In this document: positions 4,270-63,080 of the stretch, one piece after another
How the letters are laid out: the number at the start of each line of letters is the position of its first letter
Position numbering within the stretch: position 1 is the first letter of the stretch
Source: Dehalococcoidia bacterium
GTDB lineage: Bacteria > Chloroflexota > Dehalococcoidia > UBA2979
Direction: 5' to 3'
Assembly (NCBI GenBank): GCA_965262725.1
Contig: OZ253555.1
Location: 1 to 64,000 of the forward strand
Length of the DNA: 64,000 nt
Made by a program: the position numbers and the translations under genes
Notes under the pieces: model-generated
The model's database searches: none
What the model saw: only the letters and a program-made list of their open reading frames with translations
Told to the model about the DNA's origin: nothing

Positions 4270-5043
4270 TCAATCACCTCCCGTCTGCGCCTCGAGCAGG
4301 GCGCGGTGCGGCGAGAGCCGCTGGCGGTAGCTATCGCCCTCGATCACGATCTGGTAGCTGGCGTTCGCGAGCCGGTCGAGGGCGCTGTTGCCGAGGATCG
4401 GGTCGTCGAAGAGACCCAGCCATTCCTCCACGGCGCGGTTCGAGGTGATCACGAAGCTCGAGCTGCGGTGGCGCCCGATGACCAGCTCGTAGAGGTCGAT
4501 GGACTGCTGCGCGCTGAGGCGATGGAGCCCGAGGTCGTCGAGGATGAGCAGGTCGGGCGCGAGGAAGCTTCGGAAGACCTTCTCGGCCGAGTGGTCGACG
4601 CGGGCCTGCGCCATCTCGCGGAAGTAGTGGTCGGCCGGGGCGAAGCGCACGGTGCGTCCGGAGCGGACGGCTGAGTAGCCGAGCGCCTGGGCTAAGAAGC
4701 TCTTGCCGACGCCGACGGGGCCGACGAGCAGGACGTGCTCGCGGCGGTCGAGGAAGTGCAGCGAGAAGGCGGCGTCGAGCAGGCGGCGGTCGAGCCGGAT
4801 GGCGGCCGCCCAGTCGAAGTCCTCGAGGCGGCAGAGCTGCTCGAAGCCGGCCTGGCGCAGGCGCAGCTCCAACCGCCCGTGGTCGCGGCGGCTCACCTCG
4901 TCGACGAGCAGGATCTGCAGGAAGTCCGCGTAGTCGAGGTGGTCGCGCCGCGCGAGGGCGATGCGCTCGGGCAACGTGTCGAGCATACGGCCGAGCTTGA
5001 GGCGCTTGAGCAGCGGACGGAGGTCTGAGGTGGTGGCGGTCAT
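4270..5043 (-). CDS. istB: IS21 helper ATPase
   Basis: GPVGVGKS Walker A, LLILDDLG Walker B, ITSN, LDRL...IEGDSYR. Confidence 0.95.
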   Translation of the reverse strand: MTATTSDLRPLLKRLKLGRMLDTLPERIALARRDHLDYADFLQILLVDEVSRRDHGRLELRLRQAGFEQLCRLEDFDWAAAIRLDRRLLDAAFSLHFLDRREHVLLVGPVGVGKSFLAQALGYSAVRSGRTVRFAPADHYFREMAQARVDHSAEKVFRSFLAPDLLILDDLGLHRLSAQQSIDLYELVIGRHRSSSFVITSNRAVEEWLGLFDDPILGNSALDRLANASYQIVIEGDSYRQRLSPHRALLEAQTGGD

Positions 5044-11893: not shown

Positions 11894-12962
11894 GGGTTCT
11901 CTGAACAGGTCGCCACGGCGCTCGATTGCCATCCGGTCACCGTCGGCAAGTGGCGCCGGCGCTTTGCACAGTGGCGGCTCGATGGGCTACAGGATGAGCC
12001 GCGCCCCGGGGCGCCGCGCACGATCACCGATGCACAGGTGGAAGCGGTGATCGTCACGACGCTGGAGGAGCAGCCTCCCAACGCGACGCACTGGTCGACC
12101 AGATCGATGGCAGCCGCGCTCGGGATGTCGCAGTCGGGGATCTCCAGGATCTGGCGCGCCTTCGGCCTGAAGCCGCGCCTCGTGGAGAGCTTCAAGCTGT
12201 CGCCCGACCCGCAGTTCATCGACAAGGTCCGTGACGTGGCCGGGCTCTATCTCAACCCGCCCGACGCGGCGGTTGTGCTGTGCGTGGACGAGAAGACCCA
12301 GATCCAGGCACTCGACCGCACCGCTCAGACGGTGCCGATGATGCCCGGCGTCCCCGCCCGCCAGACGCACGACTACATCCGTCACGGCACGACGAACCTC
12401 TACGCGGCGCTCGATGTCGCTTCGGGATGCGTGATCACGGAGATGACCCCCCGGCACCGGGCTCGGGAGTTCCAGCAGTTCCTCACCCTCATCGACCGCA
12501 GCGTTCCCCGTGAGCTGGCGGTGCATGTCGTGCTCGACAACGTCTCCACGCACCGCACGCCCGCCATCCAGCGCTGGCTCCAGCGCCATCCCCGCTTCAC
12601 CTTGCATTTCACGCCGACCTACAGCTCCTGGATGAACCTCGTGGAGCGCTGGTTTGCAGAGCTCACCAGCAAGTGGCTCCGGCGCGGCACGCACCACAGC
12701 GTCCCTGATCTGATCCGCTCAGTGGAGATGTGGGTCGCCAGCTGGAACGAGAATCCGAGGCCCTTCATCTGGCACAAGACCGCGGACCAGATCCTGGAGT
12801 AGGGTCAGGGGCTGGCGCGGTGCGAGCCGTAGGCGGTGGCGCATATTGCCAGGCCGGTTTCCCGGTGGCGCCCATCTCCACAGCCGTAGCATCGTCCGTC
12901 TCCAGCCCCTGCCGCCTCGAACCGGACGTGAGGTTTTCCCTCATCCGGCTCACCGATGCCCT

Positions 12963-15183
12963 TCACCGGGCGGCATGCGGGGTGCCCCGCCACGGTCGAT
13001 ATGGCCGTGGTGCCACGACGCGCTGTCCAGCTAGCGAGATGAGCCCCAGACGGTCGGCGACGGGAAACGGGTGCCCGCGATGGCGTCGCCGCCAACGCAA
13101 CCGCTTCCCCAGCCAGAGTTTGAGTCTCCACATGGCAAACCAGTGCAGGACGTCGAACGCCCTCGCCGAGTTGCCGTAGCGGAAGTAGCTCATCCAGCCG
13201 CGGAGGTAGCGATTGACTTCCTCCACGACCTGCCGGGGACTCAGCAGCAGACGCAACCGCGCCGTGATTTCACGGATGCGGTCCCGCGCCCGCTGCATCG
13301 CTCGCCGTGAGGGCCAGCGTGCGAGGAACTGGATATTCTTGTTGCGCTTCGCACGTACCCAGCGATGCTCGAAGCCGAGGAACTCCAGCCCCTCGCCTCC
13401 CTCCCGCAGGTGCACGATGCGCGTCTTCTCCGCCTTGAGCTCCAGTCCGAGCTCACCCAGCAGGTCACGCAGCAGGGCCAACGCCCGCTCCGCTTCCTCC
13501 CGGCTCCGGCAGAGCACCACGAGGTCATCCGCATAGCGCACCAGCACGCCATCACCCTTCGCCTCCCAGTCCCGGTCCAACCGGTGCAGGTAGACATTGG
13601 CCAGCAGCGGGGACATCACCCCGCCCTGCGGCGTACCCGTCGCGCTGTGCTGCACGACCCCCGACTCCATCACACCGGCACGCAGCATCGCCCGTACCAG
13701 CTTCAGGAGATTGCGGTCGCATATCCGTTCCTCGACGGCCGTCATCAGACGGTCGTGTAGGGTCAGGGGCTGGCGCGGTGCGAGCCGTAGGCGGTGGCGC
13801 ATCAGTTCCAAGCCGGTTTCCCGGTGGTGCCCAACTCCACGGCCATAGCAGCGTCCGTCTCCAGCCCCTGCCACATCGAACCGGACGTGAGGTTCTCCCT
13901 CATCCGGCTCACCGATGCCCTTCACCAGATGGCATGCAGCGCTCCCCACAACGTGGGTCGTGCCTTGGCCAGCCGGTACAGCATGTGCGGAGAGCCTCGA
14001 ACCCTACCAAGTGGTTGCTAGCCCCGAGGGGCACTCACCAGTCCACACCCCCAGCAACATGCACGGACAAAGTAGGGGTCCTTCCCATCACCGGCGGTTA
14101 TGTTGTCCGTCCGGCTCCAGCGGTACTACGACCCCCTCCGCCACCCTTCCGGCTGGCTGTCCACTTCCCGGCTCTGACCGGTTATAGGACGCCTCGCTCC
14201 GACGCCCTCTCACAGGGTGCCGGGCCGGGGAGGGCTTCTCCGGTTCCCGTCGCTACCTTCCGTACGTTCCACGTCCCATACGCCGGGAGGTTTCTTGAGG
14301 CTGCATTCCAGGATCTTCACCTCGTCCATGGCCTTCGCCCTGACCACCCGGGCTCGGCTCCTCCTTGGTCCTGTCAATAGACAGGCGAGTCTCACGGCGC
14401 GGCAGACTTCGCGTCATGCTGCGGACCGCACGTTTGCTCCCCCTCATAGGGCTCTTGACGTCGGGCTTCGACGCAGACCGTTTCCCGTCCACGCCGCCGA
14501 CCTGCTAACGGGCCTCCTGACAGTTACCCGTGCCGGACTCTCACCGGCTGGCAGCAACGAGCATGTCTCCGGACCGGTCACGTCATCACGTCACCACCCC
14601 TTCGACTTCCGGACGCACGCGGTATCGACTCGAAACACGAGGCGATGTCCGTCTCCACTACCCACCGCCTGCCCCGCCACGCCTCGTCAATGAGGACCTG
14701 CAGGGCGTCATGGGCCGAACGCTTCGGGCGGAAGCCGAAGCTGCATGGCAGGAAGTCGGCCTCGAAGACCGGCTCCGTCACGAGCTTCAGCGACGCCTGC
14801 ACGATGCGGTCGCGGACCGAAGGAATCGAGAGCGGGCGCTCTTCCGACCGACCGGGCTTGGGTATCCAGACCCGGCGGCTCGGCTGCACCCGGTATCTTC
14901 CCTCCTTCAGTTCCGTGGCCAGTTCATCCAGCAGGCGCTCCACGCCGTAGCGCTCGACCTCGGCGAGCGTGACGCCGTCGATACCGGCTGCGCCGCGATT
15001 GCGACGCACCTGCTCCCACGCGCGCTCCAGAATGTCTCTGCGATAAACCTTGTCGTAGAGCGCATGAAAGCGTCTATTGGGGTCGGCCTTGGCCGCCCGG
15101 TAAAGCGTGCGTTGTAGTGTTCGGACCTTGTCTTGGATGGAGTTAGCCGCTTGGGCACTCACCGATTCATCCCTACTCCCCAC
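12963..15183 (-). CDS. ltrA: Group II intron reverse transcriptase/maturase, join(15183-14619, 13756-12963), ~452 aa, no endonuclease domain
   Basis: GAAGIDG, RPLSIPSVRDR, SFGFRP, GTPQGGVMSPLLAN, YADD, FLG, GWMSYF. Spliced junction reads DIASCFESIP-H-DRLM. Confidence 0.92.
13757..14618 (-). ncRNA. ORF-less group II intron (inner, 862 nt)
   Basis: Starts GTGCG, ends CCCTAC, has domain V, is homologous to the outer intron RNA, and has only a short sequence in place of the RT ORF. Confidence 0.92.
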
Positions 15184-16162
15184 GCGTGAGCAAAGCAGGG
15201 GTCCTTCCCATCACCGGCGGTTGTGTTGTCCGTCCGGCTCAAGCGGTACTACGACCCCCTCCGTCACCCTTCCGGCTAGCTGCCCACTTCCCGGCTTTGA
15301 CCGGTTATAGGGCACCTCGCTCCGACACCATCTCGCAGGGTGCCGGGCCGGGGAGGGCTTCTCCCGTTCCCGTCGCTACCTTCCAAACGTTCCACGCCCC
15401 TTACGCCGGGAGGTTCCTTGAGGCTGCAGCGCAACGCGCATTCAGGATCTTCACCTCGTCCATGGCCTTCGCCCTGAATTGCCGGGCTCGGCTCCTCCAC
15501 TATCCGTTAACGACGCGGCAGGCTTCGCTTGATGCTGCGGACCGCTTGGTTGCTCCCCCTGATAGGGCTCTTGACGTCGGGCTTCGACGTGGACCGTTTC
15601 CCGTCCGCGCCGCCGACCTGCTAACGGGCCTCCTGACAGTTACCCGTGCCGGACTCGCACCGGCTGGCAACGACGAGCATGTCTCCAGACCGGTTACGTC
15701 ATCACGTCACCCGCCCTTCGACTTCGGGACACACCAACCTCGCCGGATATCTAGAGCGCATCCCTGACTCGGGACACTAGCACCACTCTGGGCTGGGCAG
15801 GGCGATTGGCTGCGATCTGAGGACGGGAAAGCGGGGCTGGACTCGCTGGACGTCCAAAAGGTTCGGGCGAACCCGAGCGCCCCGTGGACCTCGAACCGTT
15901 GAGGCCATCTACGGATCTTGCGGCATCGCCTCCTTCAGTCGAAAACCGTCACGCCGGGCGGCTGCTGCCGTCGGCCGTGGTGCCCTGGGCAAAGGGACGG
16001 CCCGGTACCGGCTTCTTCGATTTGGCCAGCGACTTGGGTCTCGACGCTGTGCAGGCCCCCAGTCTGCGAGGGCGGTCACTCGCCATAGCGTCACTTTGCA
16101 CCCTTCCTCCCCTTGGGTAGGCTGGTCGGCGGGTTCAGCGCGAATCTGGCGGTGTGTGGACC

Positions 16163-57555: not shown

Positions 57556-58728
57556 GTGATCCACCGGCAGCGACAGCCCCACGGACGCCTCGTGGACTGC
57601 CCCGGCAACTACCGCGCCTTCGTGCCGGCTCCACCCCCGCCATCCCTCTCCTAGGATGAGCATCTCACGCTTGGCCTGTCCGCCGCCGACCGCGCCATCG
57701 GCAGACTCGCCGGTGAAGGACGGCGACTCCCCCACCCGCATCTCCTGATCCGGCCCTTCGTCCGCAGGGAGGCCGTGCTCTCCAGCCGCATCGAGGGCAC
57801 GCAGGCGACTCTGGGGGAGTTGCTTGCGGCCGAGGCCGGCGCCGCCGTCGACCGCAGCCCGGACGACCTGCGTGAGGTCGGGAACTACGTCACTGCCCTC
57901 GAGTACGGCCTGGAGCGCCGTGCAACGCTGCCCGTCTCGCTGCGTCTCGTGCGAGAACTCCACGAACGACTCATGCGGGGGGTCCGTGGGGACGTGGCTA
58001 CCCCGGGAGAGTTCCGGCGCAGCCAGAACTGGATCGGGCCACCGGGCTGCACCCTCTACGAGGCGAGCTACGTCCCGCCCCCGCCTGCCGAGCTGATGCC
58101 GTGCCTCGACGCCTGGGAGCGGTTCCTTCACGATCAGTCCCTCCCCCCGCTCGTGCACGCCGCCGTCGCCCATGCCCACTTCGAGGCGATCCACCCCTTC
58201 CTCGACGGCAACGGCCGCGTCGGGCGCCTGCTCATCACGCTCCTGCTGATCGCGCGCGGCGTCCTCCCCTCACCCCTGCTCTGCCTGAGCGCCTACTTCG
58301 AGTCGACGAGGGACGCCTACTACGCTCACCTGCTGGCACTGACGGAGCGGGGGGAATGGGAGGAGTGGCTGACCTACTTTCTGCGAGGGGTCGTGCTGCA
58401 ATCGGAGGATGCCCTGGAGAGGATCGAGCGGCTCGACGACCTGCTGGCGGGCTGGAGGCGGGGGCTCGCGGCCGCGCGCTCACGACTGCCCGAGCAGGCA
58501 CTCGACCTCTTCGCCGAGAACCCCTTCTGGACGGTGCGCGGCGTGTCCTCACGCCTCGGGGTGGCCTTCACGACCGCTCAGCGGGGCATCGAGCGCCTGC
58601 AGGCGTCCGGCATCGTCACCCGCGTGGGAGAAGGTCGCCGCAACCGCGTCTACTGTGCGGAGGCCGTCCTGAACATCCTGGAGCAGCCCTTCCCTCCTCA
58701 GAGAGGTGCTCCGGCCGCGACGTCCTGA
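57556..58728 (+). pseudogene. Fic family protein, in-frame TAG at ~57652 (the 57775 ORF is its 3' part)
   Basis: YRAFVPAPPPPSLS*DEHL...EAVLSSRIEG...HPFLDGNGRVGR. Confidence 0.85.
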
Positions 58729-59057
58729 CCACACCCCGAGGATCCCGCTGCGAGGACTCGCGATTCAGCGCACGATTGCGGATCGTGACGGACCGGGGCC
58801 CGCCTCGGCTGCATCCGCGGGCTGCTTCGATGACCTGCTGCGCTCATCGTCCAGGATGAGCTTCTCGCGCATGCGACGCTGCTCGAGGCGTTCGGGCCGA
58901 CGCTCGGCCGGCCGCACGTGGACACACTGAATGGATCGCGCCACAGCAATATGAAGGAGCTTCGCTTTGGGGATTATATGGGAAAGTGCCACGAGATGAT
59001 AGGCTAGAGCGGTGACCCGCAACGTCCTGAGACAGGCGGGCCACCGCTCTCGACGAT

Positions 59058-59128
59058 GGGGCGTGCAGGCTTGCCGGGGTAGACTTACACCCTGCCCCCG
59101 CCGGGTTCGACTCCCGGACGCTCCACCA
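59058..59128 (+). ncRNA. Non-canonical tRNA-like / tmRNA tRNA-like-domain-like RNA
   Basis: GGGGCGT/ACGCTCC-A-CCA acceptor with G3.U70; CCGGG-TTCGACT-CCCGG T arm; GGGGTAG/CTGCCCC stem; no proper D stem. Confidence 0.75.
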
Positions 59129-59287
59129 TCACCTTACCAGAGGGAGGGGCAGCCGCCGACTTTGCCGGCAGGCCGAGTACAGCCCGCGCCAACTCCTGCG
59201 GCGACGCGTCGATCCGATTATCTACTCGCTTCGGCACGTCTCAGCCTCTCTTCCCACATCTAGGGTGTTGGACGCGTTCGGCGTTTG

Positions 59288-59782
59288 TCAAGGTGCGTCC
59301 GAGGGGGCGATCTCGACATGCCAGGCCCCGTCGCAGAGCACCAGGAGCTCGATGCGCGCTGTGAGCCGGGCTGTGAAGGTGACCACCTGCACCGCCTCCC
59401 AGTGACCGCGCTCCTTGTTCCAGCCGACAGAGGTGTCGCGAATCGCGACGATGGACGTGCCGTACTTGCTGTGGTCCTCGACCCACTTCGACGCCGAGCG
59501 GTCGAGCACGTGCATGCTGCACAGGTCGAGGAACTCGGTGTGCTCTGCGTCCAGCCACGTGGAGCGGGCAGTGTATCTGCCGGGGGCGAGCACAAAGGAG
59601 TCGCTCGTGAAATCCCCCACCCCGTCAAATGTCCCGGCCGGCGGATCTGGCTCGGGCACCGCGCTCTTGACGAGGGCGCGGTGTTCGTCGGTCAGGTCGT
59701 CCGGAAACAGGGCGCTCAGGTCGCTGCCAGCGAGGTGGGACGCGATCACGATAAGCACGGCCAAGATGAGCGACGACAGCAC
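59288..59782 (-). CDS. Passenger hypothetical membrane-anchored/secreted protein
   Basis: N-terminal hydrophobic helix; TFDGVGDFTSDSFVLAPGRY beta-sandwich-like segment. Confidence 0.6.
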   Translation of the reverse strand: MLSSLILAVLIVIASHLAGSDLSALFPDDLTDEHRALVKSAVPEPDPPAGTFDGVGDFTSDSFVLAPGRYTARSTWLDAEHTEFLDLCSMHVLDRSASKWVEDHSKYGTSIVAIRDTSVGWNKERGHWEAVQVVTFTARLTARIELLVLCDGAWHVEIAPSDAP

Positions 59783-59977
59783 GTGGAGCCCCCTCGCGGA
59801 GCAGGTCGGGGATTGACCGCTCTCGCCAGATGGCCCTTACACCGGCACAGCCCCGCGAGGAGACATGGGTCTCCCCGACCTCTGAGAGGTGCCGATGCAG
59901 GTCGCTCTGGCGAGAGCTGCGGGATGCTACCACAAATGGCGTGTCGCGCGGCGACACGCTCCGGTACAATCACCGGT

Positions 59978-60322
59978 ATGACCCCCAAGCAGACCGATCA
60001 GGCGATCGCTGAGCTTGTGACGAGCTTTGCTGCGAACCAGCAGGCTCGCGGGTTCGCGCAGATGCGGCTCCAGTCGGTTGGACGCCAGCTACAGGAGCTT
60101 GGGAAGGCTCTCGTCGACACACCCCGCGCCGTGTGCCTCAAGGATGGCGTTATCGCCAAGAACTACGCTGATGCAGGCGCAACCGTCGAGGACGTTACGT
60201 GGGATGGCCATTCTCTGCGAGACATGATCGAAGCCTACCATGAGGCCCTCACCGAGCAGGATCGTCTCTCCGCGACAGCGAGGACCTGCGGGCTGGATAA
60301 CGTCCTCCGGATCGACCCCTAG
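59978..60322 (+). CDS. Passenger hypothetical protein (114 aa), probably leaderless
   Basis: TACAAT at 59965-59970 lies 7 nt before the ATG; helical composition. Confidence 0.6.
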   Translation: MTPKQTDQAIAELVTSFAANQQARGFAQMRLQSVGRQLQELGKALVDTPRAVCLKDGVIAKNYADAGATVEDVTWDGHSLRDMIEAYHEALTEQDRLSATARTCGLDNVLRIDP

Positions 60323-60340
60323 CTCGGGGGTCTCACGCGA

Positions 60341-61279
60341 CTAGGCCACAAGGTCACAGTAGCGCAGGCGCTTGCCCTGCATCCCCCGCCAGATCGCGGC
60401 CATCTGATCGATCGTGTCCATCGGGCGCTGGTTGTGGCGGCCCGCGAACTCGGCGACGTAGCGGTCGAGGTGCTTCGGGCTCATGCGGTGGTACGTCCCG
60501 TAGTAGCCGCGCTTGAGCATCGACCAGAACGACTCGATACCGTTCGTGTGAGCTTGACCGTTGACGTACTCGCCCACGCTGTGGGCGACCGTCTCGTGAT
60601 TCGGGAGGCCCCGGTACGCGCCGTGGTCGTCCGTGTAGACATCGGCCTCCTGCGCGATGCGCGAGAGGACGAACGGCTTGAGCGTCGCGCCGTCGGTGCG
60701 CTCGACGACGCGGGCGCTCACCTGGCCTGATACACGATCCTTGACGCCGGCGACGGCGGTCTTGCCGACAGGCCCGCGGCCCGCGCGCAGCTTCATGCTC
60801 GCGTGCTTGTTGTGCTCCTTACCGCCGATGTAGGTCTCGTCCGCCTCGACGGGGCCGATGAAGCCGTTGAGGTCGCCCTGCGCCTCCCATGCCTGGCGGA
60901 TGCGGTGTACGAGGTGCCACGCGGACTTCTGCGTGACCTCGAGGTCGCGGTGCATCTTCATCGACGAAACACCCTTGAGCGAGGTCGAGAGCACGTAGAT
61001 CGCGATCGCCCATGTCTGGTAGCCAAGCTTCGAGGACTGCATGGCCGTGCCGGTGCGAACGCTGAAGCGCTTCTTGCAGTCGCGGCAGCGGAAGGGCATG
61101 GACTTGTGGACGGCGTCGGTCTTCACGTCTAGGGAGCCGCAGGCTGTGCAGGCGGGAGAGCCGCCCCAGCGGGTCTCTACGAACCAGTCCTCGGCGGTCG
61201 TGTCGTCGGGGAACAAGCGAAACAACTCTCGCATGCTCATCCCCTTGCGGTGGTACTGGCCCGGCGCCTTCTGCGTCAT
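60341..61279 (-). CDS. IS1595 family transposase
   Basis: CTAC...CRDC zinc ribbon, HTH, EADETY, YTDD, HTNGIESFW. Confidence 0.95.
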   Translation of the reverse strand: MTQKAPGQYHRKGMSMRELFRLFPDDTTAEDWFVETRWGGSPACTACGSLDVKTDAVHKSMPFRCRDCKKRFSVRTGTAMQSSKLGYQTWAIAIYVLSTSLKGVSSMKMHRDLEVTQKSAWHLVHRIRQAWEAQGDLNGFIGPVEADETYIGGKEHNKHASMKLRAGRGPVGKTAVAGVKDRVSGQVSARVVERTDGATLKPFVLSRIAQEADVYTDDHGAYRGLPNHETVAHSVGEYVNGQAHTNGIESFWSMLKRGYYGTYHRMSPKHLDRYVAEFAGRHNQRPMDTIDQMAAIWRGMQGKRLRYCDLVA

Positions 61280-61533
61280 CTCCGGATTCTCCTTGCTACA
61301 CAAGGATCATATCATCTCGTGGCAGTTTTGTATATAATCCCCTTCGCTTTCGGGCCGCTGGAGGCGTGTGGCGCGTCGCCTTCGCGTTCGACCCACGGCG
61401 GCGGGCCATGCTGCTCGCAGCCGGTGACAAGGCAGGTCTGGATGAGCGGCGCTCCTACCGCCAGTTGATCAGGAGGGCGGACCAGCGGTTCGACTCCCAT
61501 CTCGAGCGGCTGGGGTGAAGCACGGAGGTGACC

Positions 61534-61891: not shown

Positions 61892-62440
61892 CTATCCCCG
61901 TCTGCGCGGGACCCGCCTGAGAGGTTCCGAGGAGCGGGTGGCTCCTCTGGGACTCGCGAGCTGCCGCTCCAGCGCCGTGAACGCCTCGATGAGTTCGGGA
62001 GCCTCGAACGCACGGTTTCGGCGTCCGACGGTCAACTGCGTGAGGATGCCGGCCTCCTCCAGCCGGTTAATGGCCTGGCTTGTCGCCTGGTACGACCGGC
62101 CGATCAGGTCCGCCGCCGACGCGCGGCGCACCGGCCCCAGCCGCCCGCGCCAGGCGTCCTGGAGCGCCCGCACCTGCTCCTCGAAGCGCCCGGCGTCCTC
62201 GGCGGCGCGTCTGTATGCGCTCGCGAAGAGCGCGATCCAGCGGTTGACGCCGGCGCGGGCATCGTCCGAATCGGGCACGCCCTCGTAGCGCGTCGCCGTG
62301 AGGCCACCCACGTAGTCGCCGGGCCACGTGGCGAGGATCAACGAGATCGGCGGGAGGATGCGTGGTGCGAGCCCGCGTCGTCGTAGCACGAGGTGGATGA
62401 GCGCGCGTCCGGTTCGCCCGTTCCCGTCGATGAACGGCCT
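61892..62440 (-). pseudogene. Fic family C-terminal fragment
   Basis: PFIDGNGRTGRALIH; GRRNRAFEA. Confidence 0.8.
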
Positions 62441-62499
62441 GCTCGACCATCCCGGTTCTCCGGCGCCCGATCTTCCGCTGGCTCTATCCAGCCACGGCC

Positions 62500-62645
62500 G
62501 CAGCTGCGGGCGTAGTCGAGGAAGCCCCTCGTGAGGCGCTGGTGCAGCGCGTCGGGCGTCGGCCACGGCGGCCGGAACGTTATCGACGGCGAGGTAGCGG
62601 GCACGCTCTCGCAGAAGGCCCAGGCCTCCTCCAGGCCCCTCGAGC
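62500..62645 (-). pseudogene. IS21 istA internal remnant
   Basis: GLEEAWAF...DALH.R.TRGFLDYAR matches istA at ~5900-6030. Confidence 0.8.
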
Positions 62646-63080
62646 ACCGCGTCGAGCCGCCGGCTGGTAGTGGGCCAGACGTGGTGGCTCCTGATCCGAC
62701 AGGCAATCGCGGCGCGCGTCGACGAGGGGCGCGACCTCCACGAGCCAGGGAATCTCTGGGTGGGCCTACCGCACGGCGTCGGGGACGTTGTCGACCGCGT
62801 CCCCGAGCGCCGCGATGTGCCCGAGCGACATCGTGGAGCACCCGCGCGCCGCTAGATCAGGGGACACTATCGACGCGGCGTGATCGATATGACCGCCCCC
62901 AGTTGTCCGCGTCGCTGGATGGAGCGGTATCACTTGACGAATCCCGGGGCCGGATGCGGCGATCGCAGCCGACCCTGCTCCGCCACCCTCGGCCCCTGAG
63001 TGATCGAGGACCCCCGCCGCTGGCGGCACTGCAACTGGCCGGCCACGCCCCGGACACCCGTGGCCACGTTGCGTCTGGTC

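Follow-up and report, generated by a model that had tools for sequence, protein, structure and literature searches.

A compact tRNA-type RNA gene with a predicted alanine identity near one end of an IS1595-family insertion sequence in a Dehalococcoidia bacterium

The window analysed here, a stretch of 64,000 nucleotides from a Dehalococcoidia bacterium (positions 1 to 64,000 of contig OZ253555.1, assembly GCA_965262725.1), contains an insertion sequence (IS) of the IS1595 family with cargo, 2374 bp in all (58969-61342; blastn, with ends and duplications read), and within this IS a + strand gene for a compact tRNA-type RNA of 71 nt (59058-59128). A preliminary description of the sequence had placed such an RNA in the left part of an IS1595 element, 89 nt from its end, with a fully paired acceptor stem, a G3.U70 pair, discriminator A73, an encoded CCA and a T arm; the position and all of these features were confirmed. 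The IS is flanked by an 8-bp target-site duplication, TTCGCTTT, at 58961-58968 on the left and at 61343-61350 on the right. The left terminal inverted repeat (58969-59001, +) starts with GGGGATTATAT and is the reverse complement of the right repeat (61310-61342, -), which starts with GGGGATTATAT at 61342. The transposase of 320 aa is encoded on the - strand (60341-61303) and matched Pfam DDE_Tnp_IS1595 (PF12762; 131.9 bits, cut-off 27) and NCBIfam transpos_IS1595 (NF033547; 173.6 bits, cut-off 75), together with Zn_ribbon_IS1595 at 24.7 bits, slightly below the cut-off of 25.4. A second copy of the IS, 99.7% identical over a 2387-bp stretch, was detected by blastn at 1979203-1981577 of the same 3.67-Mb genome, where it is flanked by a different 8-bp duplication of its own, ATTGTTTT. 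The type of transposase, the inverted repeats, the 8-bp duplication and the presence of two copies assign the element to the IS1595 family, as had been proposed. The RNA is identical in the two copies, and since both hold it internally with different flanks, it is not a simple att remnant, in agreement with the preliminary description.

The structure of the RNA was predicted from the sequence and by RNAfold, and it was assigned to the + strand because the G.U pairs fix the strand. The 7-bp acceptor stem (GGGGCGU/ACGCUCC; 59058-59064 and 59118-59124) is fully paired and includes G3.U70 (59060 and 59122), and is followed by A73 (59125) and the encoded CCA (59126-59128). The T arm (59101-59117) reads CCGGG/UUCGACU/CCCGG. 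In the anticodon-type arm (59076-59098), a 7-bp stem, GGGGUAG/CUGCCCC, which had been pointed out before and is found both in the sequence and in the RNAfold structure, closes the 9-nt loop ACUUACACC (59083-59091). The D region had been described as lacking a real stem; this does not hold, as RNAfold gave a D arm (59065-59074, nucleotides 8-17 of the RNA) with a stem of 3 bp (GCA/UGC) and the loop GGCU, directly abutting the acceptor, and all three pairs change on both sides among the 23 aligned members of the RNA family described below. This cloverleaf is both the minimum free energy structure and the centroid, at -33.7 kcal/mol.

As in canonical bacterial tRNA-Ala, including the tRNA-Ala genes of the host, the RNA has G1-C72, G2-C71, G3.U70, A73 and CCA, together with a 7-bp acceptor stem, a 5-bp T stem and a T loop of the GUUCGA type (GUUCRA in canonical tRNAs). 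In contrast, its core departs from the canonical one, in which two connector nucleotides, a D stem of 3-5 bp with a loop of 7-11 nt and an anticodon stem of 5 bp with a 7-nt loop carrying U33 and a purine at 37 are expected: the connector is absent, the D arm consists of 3 bp and 4 nt, the 7-bp anticodon-type stem carries a 9-nt loop that is not of the Ala type, and the variable region is 2 nt long. Judging from the sequence, the features expected of a substrate of alanyl-tRNA synthetase (AlaRS), namely paired G3.U70, A73, G2-C71 and a free CCA end, are present.

By its homologs and their covariation, the RNA is a member of a conserved family of compact cloverleaf RNAs. When the IS left end was compared by BLAST with 401 genomes of the class, related RNAs were detected in four of them, G163, G234, G035 and G378 (labels beginning with G and L denote genomes and loci). 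Of 98 other genomes in the bacterial family searched with R1, a covariance model built from three sequences, 7 contained strong matches, of 43-92 bits (G163, G455, G146, G454, G180, G362 and G456), and three further members within the class were added by BLAST; ordinary tRNAs score about 30 bits on R1. With R2, a model of the R1 type including the D stem, the window RNA scored 95 bits and 22 further members (21 loci) scored 34-94 bits. The alignment of these 23 members was limited to matches with E <= 1e-5, leaving out L130, L165, L167, L036, L038, L017 and three ordinary tRNAs. In this alignment 96.0% of the cells were standard-paired, against 64.6% in shuffles, and the covariation score was 0.707, against 0.137 in shuffles and 0.07-0.12 in slid controls, a value reached by none of 500 shuffles; the alignment was fitted to the model, and these figures therefore lean towards structure. 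The covariation that the preliminary description had proposed to look for was found as compensatory changes on both sides in 17 of the 20 pairs, with all four helices represented.

The scaffold of the family is characterized by a 7/5 acceptor/T branch, a length of 70-74 nt with CCA, G3.U70 and A73, a D stem of 2-4 bp abutting the acceptor with a GG-containing loop of 3-5 nt, one linker nucleotide, an anticodon-type stem of 7-8 bp, a variable region of 0-2 nt and a canonical T arm; the window RNA has all of these, including the Ala identity. Among the ten relatives found without a forcing pattern, that is by BLAST or by covariance model, G1-C72, G2-C71, G3.U70 and A73 were kept in every one while acceptor pairs 4-7 covary, and the alanine identity predicted earlier from the acceptor alone is thus supported on the sequence level. 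The anticodon-type loops of the same relatives include CUCCAAA, UUUGGAU, CUUCUCA/CUUGUCA and the UUACA type. The sole member without G3.U70 is a compact RNA with a CAU loop in a tRNA array of Pseudonocardia spinosispora (L160:6609-6680, +), which has C1-G72 and no encoded CCA and is not called by ARAGORN. Loss of the encoded CCA or mutation of the T loop was observed in some relatives (L080 and L414). Three pattern scans were also made, all fixing 5' GGG and 3' TCCACCA and one of them, the metagenome scan of 50 loci, also fixing TTACA; in one scan, the matches listed (at least 120 stretches) were mostly ordinary tRNA-Ala or 3' parts of tmRNA, with about 14 compact candidates among them.

Homologs at the left ends of other IS1595 elements, which the preliminary description had suggested collecting, were found in four further elements (L073/G455, L082/G163, L075/G180 and L074/G454), where the RNA lies 85-105 nt inside the left repeat and where the transposase is 95%, 85%, 74-75% and 65-66% identical, respectively, to that of the window. 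The GGGGATTATAT-type tip recurs in related IS1595 elements of other genomes. Nine related elements (L233-L241) lack the RNA, the best R1 score with filters off being 17 bits, and the compact RNA is present in 5 of 15 distinct IS1595 elements. A sister IS1595 of 3.1 kb in the same genome (2128009-2131139; L004:2010-5140), with a transposase 62% identical and the 8-bp duplication AATGCGAA, carries as cargo a canonical 77-nt tRNA-Asn(GUU), located 93 nt inside the same end and in the same orientation behind a leader hairpin; this tRNA-Asn differs from the housekeeping tRNA-Asn (3463787-3463862). In the window IS, a leader hairpin predicted by RNAfold (59006-59050, +) ends 7 nt before the 5' end of the RNA. 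Every IS-linked relative inspected has such a hairpin 4-10 nt upstream of the RNA, and frequently an A tract precedes the hairpin and a T tract follows it. Other IS1595 elements with passenger genes share with the window IS the transposase, the inverted repeats, the 8-bp duplication and the presence of extra cargo, but a tRNA-type cargo gene at a fixed place beside one end sets the window IS apart. ARAGORN also made irregular calls within IS1595 cargo: an 88-nt 'tRNA-Trp' for the G455 element (L073:7954-8041, +) and, for the G451 element, a 'tRNA-???' whose anticodon has 4 nt (L235:3110-3186, +). A further cluster in the genome of the window (702346-704240) comprises an IS1595-type tip at 702346, an extra tRNA-Phe(GAA) at 703373-703449 and a transposase fragment at 703662-704240, in a geometry unlike that of the window IS.

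The second setting of the RNA is in front of a transposase gene of the IS1-like DDE type. At L078/G146 and L080/G035, the RNA is located 31 and 25 nt, respectively, upstream from the transposase start on the same strand, and in L080 a perfect promoter (TTGACA-17-TATAAT) is followed by the leader hairpin, the RNA and the transposase gene. The transposase scored 67.8 bits in NCBIfam, under the cut-off of 100. A homolog of this transposase was present in 35 of 50 metagenome loci with the RNA, mostly directly downstream, a count that is conditional on the choice of these loci by a pattern fixing the acceptor ends, the T arm and TTACA. For the 19 measurable loci (17 from metagenomes and 2 from genomes), the distance from the RNA end to the transposase start codon was 1-51 nt, always on the same strand. 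Homology between the IS1-like units begins at the 5' end of the RNA (-7 to 0) and stops near the transposase stop, at about +928, and the unit of RNA and transposase is common to genomes of different families. Terminal inverted repeats of the unit, with the RNA either inside or outside, were no better than in shuffled controls by local alignment of 19 loci, and a single copy of the unit was found in each of G035 and G146. In a search starting from the transposase, only 3 of 30 IS1-like transposase loci of the class carried the RNA, these being the three closest to the query.

For one subgroup of metagenome loci, ARAGORN called a 74-nt 'tRNA-Ser' that separates the compact RNA from the gene of the IS1-like transposase (L362:3654-3727, L386:6190-6263 and L389:399-472, anticodon gct; L376:42-115, anticodon act); being short for its kind, it may be another irregular tRNA. 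At three loci (L079:6006-6396, L370:4381-4771 and L392:955-1345), ARAGORN called a 391-nt 'tmRNA' that has an odd 26-residue tag and ends in the compact RNA; the tRNA-like 3' half most likely gave rise to this call as an artefact.

Members of the family were also detected apart from insertion sequences. In two actinobacterial tRNA arrays, L134 and L160, no tRNA-Ala was in view other than a compact member whose loop is CUUGCAA. On phage contigs, compact tRNA-Ala(tgc) of 71-73 nt was common in ARAGORN calls among the matches listed, with few members having other loops. These compact tRNA-Ala(UGC) genes share with the window RNA the scaffold, the length with CCA and the setting on mobile DNA, but they have a cognate 7-nt loop, while the window RNA differs in its loop and sits in an IS. 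Lone compact genes with their own terminators were found in candidate-phyla bacteria and other lineages, and for the non-IS members no partner gene was common to the neighbourhoods of the loci inspected. On a Phycisphaerae contig from a metagenome-assembled genome (L176), the compact RNA (4535-4607) is followed 3 nt later by a 73-nt tRNA (4611-4683) with the anticodon UUA, called 'tRNA-Stop' by ARAGORN and scoring 65 bits with the Rfam tRNA model. A viral contig (L325, +) carries a 69-nt RNA of Ala identity in which the region after the acceptor is apparently unpaired, as in tmRNA, and leads into a single long hairpin and then a T arm; this RNA may be a true molecule of the tRNA-like domain only.

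The loops differ among the IS1595-borne members. The inner loop of the L073 RNA is UUUACAC, the same as that of the host tRNA-Val(UAC); the L082 loop, CUUACAA, is of the UUACA type and one base off CUUGCAA; the L075 loop, UUUGGAU, is of the Pro type with U33 and A37; and for L074, with the loop CUCCAAA, ARAGORN calls a tRNA-Trp. Of 37 distinct TTACA-bearing sequences (duplicates and sequences with fewer than 6 acceptor pairs being dropped), 19 have the 7-nt loop NUUUACA in the best stem register, giving UUA as the anticodon and C at 37; in L080, CUA stands in the anticodon frame of this register. In the window RNA, a standard loop of the Val UAC type, having U33 and A37, can be drawn from the inner 7 nt, CUUACAC, but only with an A.C pair closing it. 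From the sequence, the decoding register is ambiguous, either Val UAC or ochre UUA. In this genome of 70.6% GC, GUA accounts for 3.5% of the Val codons and UAA for 95 of 1939 stops, each being the rarest of its class, so that the cost of misreading to the host would be small. Suppression of a stop in the transposase frame was considered and rejected, as the transposase gene ends with TAG and the sequence beyond it looks non-coding.

Parents of the RNA were sought among the host RNAs, in view of the suggestion in the preliminary description that a decayed copy of an ordinary tRNA or tmRNA be looked for, and no parent alignment to either was obtained. The best global alignment to a host tRNA matched 56 of the 71 RNA positions and was to the 97-nt tRNA-Sec. 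The genome has a single tmRNA gene, ssrA, at 2110198-2110550 (tag GERQLALAA), from which the RNA differs in the acceptor and T stems with no collinear alignment, and its origin as an internal-deletion copy was rejected. On these comparisons, the RNA has arisen neither by decay of a host tRNA nor from the host tmRNA. Two degraded look-alikes are present in the same genome: one at 2414553-2414624 (-), with 31 bits on R2, a leader hairpin and a broken acceptor and T loop, and one at 3613902-3613967 (+), with 28 bits on R2, an 8-bp stem, an Ala GGC-type loop and a poor 5' acceptor strand.

We tentatively favour, with somewhat less than even confidence, the interpretation that the locus is a cargo gene for a compact non-canonical tRNA, which would be charged by AlaRS and, having a non-Ala loop, would read a rare codon as alanine. 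The RNA would be transcribed inside the IS together with the leader hairpin and undergo maturation by RNase P; it would then receive alanine from AlaRS, an enzyme that recognizes the acceptor stem rather than the anticodon; and, if competent on the ribosome, the RNA would deliver alanine at GUA (inner loop CUUACAC) or at UAA (UUA register). It would be an accessory cargo, not needed for the chemistry of transposition. The combination of a constant Ala identity with varied loops is the design predicted by anticodon-independent charging. In tRNA arrays and on phage contigs this scaffold occurs with a UGC loop, which makes it plausible that the scaffold works as a tRNA, and the ordinary tRNA in the same slot of the sister IS likewise argues for working of the tRNA type. 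An Ala tRNA with a UAC (Val) anticodon was one of the options raised in the preliminary description, and it is the best supported of them with respect to Ala identity and a non-Ala loop; the assignment of UAC itself is weakened by the ambiguous register and by the UUA of most relatives.

Precedents for such a molecule are found in two reports. That G3.U70 suffices for recognition by AlaRS is stated in one (PMC5389517), which also describes allo-tRNAs, non-canonical bacterial tRNAs with a subset having G3:U70 and non-Ala anticodons (GCG and UUA being named); G3:U70 allo-tRNAs inserted Ala in E. coli after a change of anticodon, and some were suggested to be tied to transposable elements or toxin-antitoxin loci (PMC5389517). 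In allo-tRNAs the acceptor/T branch is 8/4 or 9/3 and the variable arm is long (PMC5389517, PMC7609411), whereas in the window RNA the branch is 7/5 and the variable region measures 2 nt, and its classification as an allo-tRNA was rejected on these two features; the miniature D arm of the compact family is a further difference. The tRNAPyl, especially that of M. alvus, and mammalian mt-tRNASer(UCN) resemble the window RNA in having 0-1 nt between acceptor and D stem, a D loop of 4-5 nt, an anticodon stem that is lengthened and in some cases broken, and a variable region of very few nucleotides, and they are active in translation (PMC7609411). The M. alvus tRNAPyl is active although it lacks the acceptor-D linker, has a D loop of 4 nt and contains a break in its 6-bp anticodon stem (PMC7609411), and by this analogy the type of compaction seen in the family is compatible with translation. 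The tRNAPyl differs in its identity, G73 and CUA, and in an anticodon stem of 6 bp rather than 7-8 bp, and the compact-core tRNAs have neither a sequence relationship with the window RNA nor a link to insertion sequences.

Several observations count against decoding by an alanine-charged tRNA. The searches with ARAGORN and with Rfam covariance models that had been proposed in the preliminary description gave no tRNA or tmRNA match: ARAGORN called no gene in the whole window, and at the Rfam gathering score there was no match at 59058-59128, the only hits in the window being group II introns elsewhere. In the E-value mode, the best sub-threshold matches at the locus were mascRNA (24 bits) and tRNA-Sec (18 bits), and up to E = 10 neither the tRNA nor the tmRNA family appeared; in being missed by ARAGORN and RF00005, the RNA is unlike canonical tRNA-Ala. 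The fold energy was not beyond chance (z = -1.57, with 13 of 200 shuffles equally stable) and is not used as support; with the energy alone at chance level, the reality of the RNA rests on the homologs with covariation. The counts of G3.U70 from the pattern scans are not used for identity, because the pattern forces them. Loops of 9 nt in the window RNA and in L073 (CUUUACACC), and of 9-10 nt in several relatives, do not fit a standard decoding loop; C37, found in the dominant 7-nt register, is unusual in working tRNAs; and we know of no tested ribosomal precedent for an anticodon stem of 7-8 bp. Among the 18 sequencing runs listed, none recorded as RNA holds the stretch. For the CCA loop of L074, the matching Trp codon is common (13.9 per 1000) and misreading would be expected to be costly. 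The tight linkage of the RNA to the IS1-like transposase, finally, hints at an element-related role beyond decoding.

A wider proposal, which may hold but which we regard as doubtful, is that two unrelated DDE families, IS1595 and IS1-like, both carry near one end a miniature tRNA, charged by AlaRS irrespective of its anticodon, that would recode rare codons as Ala (UAA or GUA here, others in the relatives), the unit being inherited with the transposase gene and maybe tied to the expression or activity of the transposase.

An unlikely explanation, of the decoy kind raised as one option in the preliminary description, is that the RNA is a tRNA mimic acting as a decoy or sponge, the loop of which copies that of a genuine tRNA (for Val UAC in the window; for Trp, Pro and others among the relatives) and absorbs an anticodon nuclease, a tRNA-modifying toxin or a defence system, to the benefit of the host or of the element. 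The loops do copy genuine anticodon loops, such as CUCCAAA in L074, UUUGGAU in L075 and UUUACAC in L073, the last being that of the host tRNA-Val; the family resides on mobile DNA, and loops of 9-10 nt, as well as C37, suit a mimic better than a decoder. A decoy, however, would have no need of the strict AlaRS identity set kept in 10/10 relatives, no nuclease or toxin is linked to the RNA, the passenger open reading frames (ORFs) varying between elements and giving no match in PADLOC, and the contexts of the lone genes are mutually unrelated.

Quite unlikely is a role in cis only, in which the RNA would be a tRNA-shaped module for processing or insulation, with cleavage by RNase P and the leader hairpin as a terminator, limiting transcripts into the IS or the transposase mRNA without any role of aminoacylation. 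Such a module is suggested by the short same-strand spacing to the IS1-like transposase start at the 19 measurable loci, by the perfect L080 promoter ahead of hairpin, RNA and transposase gene, by the hairpin, often with its A and T tracts, before the RNA in the IS-linked members inspected, and by the canonical tRNA-Asn occupying the same slot in the sister IS. In the window IS, however, the next gene downstream is on the opposite strand, leaving no downstream mRNA for the RNA to process, and lone genes in candidate-phyla bacteria have their own terminators; the conserved G3.U70, A73, CCA and UUACA loop would remain unexplained.

Non-coding RNAs are encoded beside the transposase gene in IS110 and IS200/605 elements, and by comparison of position the RNA could be a cofactor of transposition or of its control, or a sensor coupling the transposase to the charging state of a tRNA-like molecule. 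This is very unlikely. The presence of the IS1-like transposase in 35 of the 50 metagenome loci, the extent of homology from the 5' end of the RNA to about the transposase stop and the sharing of the unit between genomes of different families speak for it, but the linkage count is conditional on loci picked by the RNA pattern, members also occur in tRNA arrays, on phage contigs and as lone genes, and with carriage in only 3 of 30 IS1-like loci of the class and 5 of 15 IS1595 elements the RNA is dispensable for both transposase families.

There is little chance that the RNA is a decaying tRNA pseudogene or an integration-site remnant hitch-hiking in the IS: the failure of tRNA finders, the two degraded look-alikes in the genome and the lost CCA or mutated T loop of L080 and L414 are as expected of decay, but compensatory changes are seen in all four helices of the 23 members, the relatives retain the identity set, the RNA could not be aligned to any host tRNA as a decayed copy, and both acceptor strands are present inside the IS. 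Scarcely credible is the mini-tmRNA considered in the preliminary description, a tRNA-like domain without the mRNA part that would enter stalled ribosomes with SmpB or titrate SmpB, since the RNA, while sharing with the tRNA-like domain of tmRNA the Ala identity set (G3.U70 and A73), the T arm, the CCA end and a small D region, has a covarying D stem and a closed anticodon-type hairpin, holds in its 71 nt no mRNA-like domain, pseudoknots, resume codon or tag frame, gave no tmRNA call in ARAGORN and no tmRNA family in Rfam up to E = 10, is unlike host ssrA in its acceptor and T stems and not collinear with it, and has relatives in tRNA arrays with ordinary Ala anticodon loops.

The remaining features of the IS concern its transcription and its passenger genes. 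A possible extended -10 element, TGATAGGCT, was read by eye at 58997-59005 (+), with TGnTAGnCT-like strings at the equivalent place in the L073 and L082 elements; a consensus promoter scan of the left end detected no + strand promoter. For the transposase, the consensus scan yielded a promoter candidate on the - strand (TATACA-17-TATGAT with an upstream TG; 61334-61306), and the right inverted repeat thus holds a promoter-like site. Two passenger ORFs lie between the RNA and the transposase gene, one of 164 aa (59288-59782, -) with a hydrophobic N-terminus and a pattern of third-position GC content (GC3) that fits coding on the - strand, and one of 144 aa (59889-60322, +). The latter ORF is uninterrupted in the second IS copy, from which the window copy differs by a 1-nt indel at 59944 that shifts the start region of this ORF. 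Neither ORF had a match in Pfam, NCBIfam or PADLOC, and neither is shared with the other IS1595 elements that carry the RNA. The 164-aa ORF gave no tblastn match in the other RNA-bearing IS1595 elements, and the 59889-60322 ORF has a 47%-identical homolog in an IS1595 element without the RNA (L234). Outside the IS, ORFs with Fic/DOC domains are located on both sides (57775-58728, +, and 61892-62647, -, the latter with a weak partial Fic match), and a repeat of about 185 bp at 62497-62680 has about 20 copies in the genome, 84-86% identical. Farther away, domains of group II introns were detected at 12886-15666 (-; RF02003 twice, 102.8 and 95.3 bits, and RF00029, 41.5 bits), which suggests two intron copies or a tandem arrangement.

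Genes for tRNA are known cargo of phages and of large tRNA arrays. Full-text literature searches, covering main texts, yielded no tRNA-type gene as fixed cargo of IS1595 or IS1-like elements and no compact Ala scaffold, and a tRNA-type gene at a fixed site in small insertion sequences is thus apparently undescribed in the main-text literature searched. Many genes with this compact scaffold have probably gone unannotated, since ARAGORN and Rfam miss it. The pairing of the RNA with the IS1-like transposase offers a testable case of an RNA gene co-inherited with a DDE transposase. Should the RNA be charged and decode, an Ala-inserting tRNA acting by missense or nonsense reading would be spread through genomes by transposition, which would give engineered suppressor tRNAs, and also the allo-tRNAs, a counterpart in nature.

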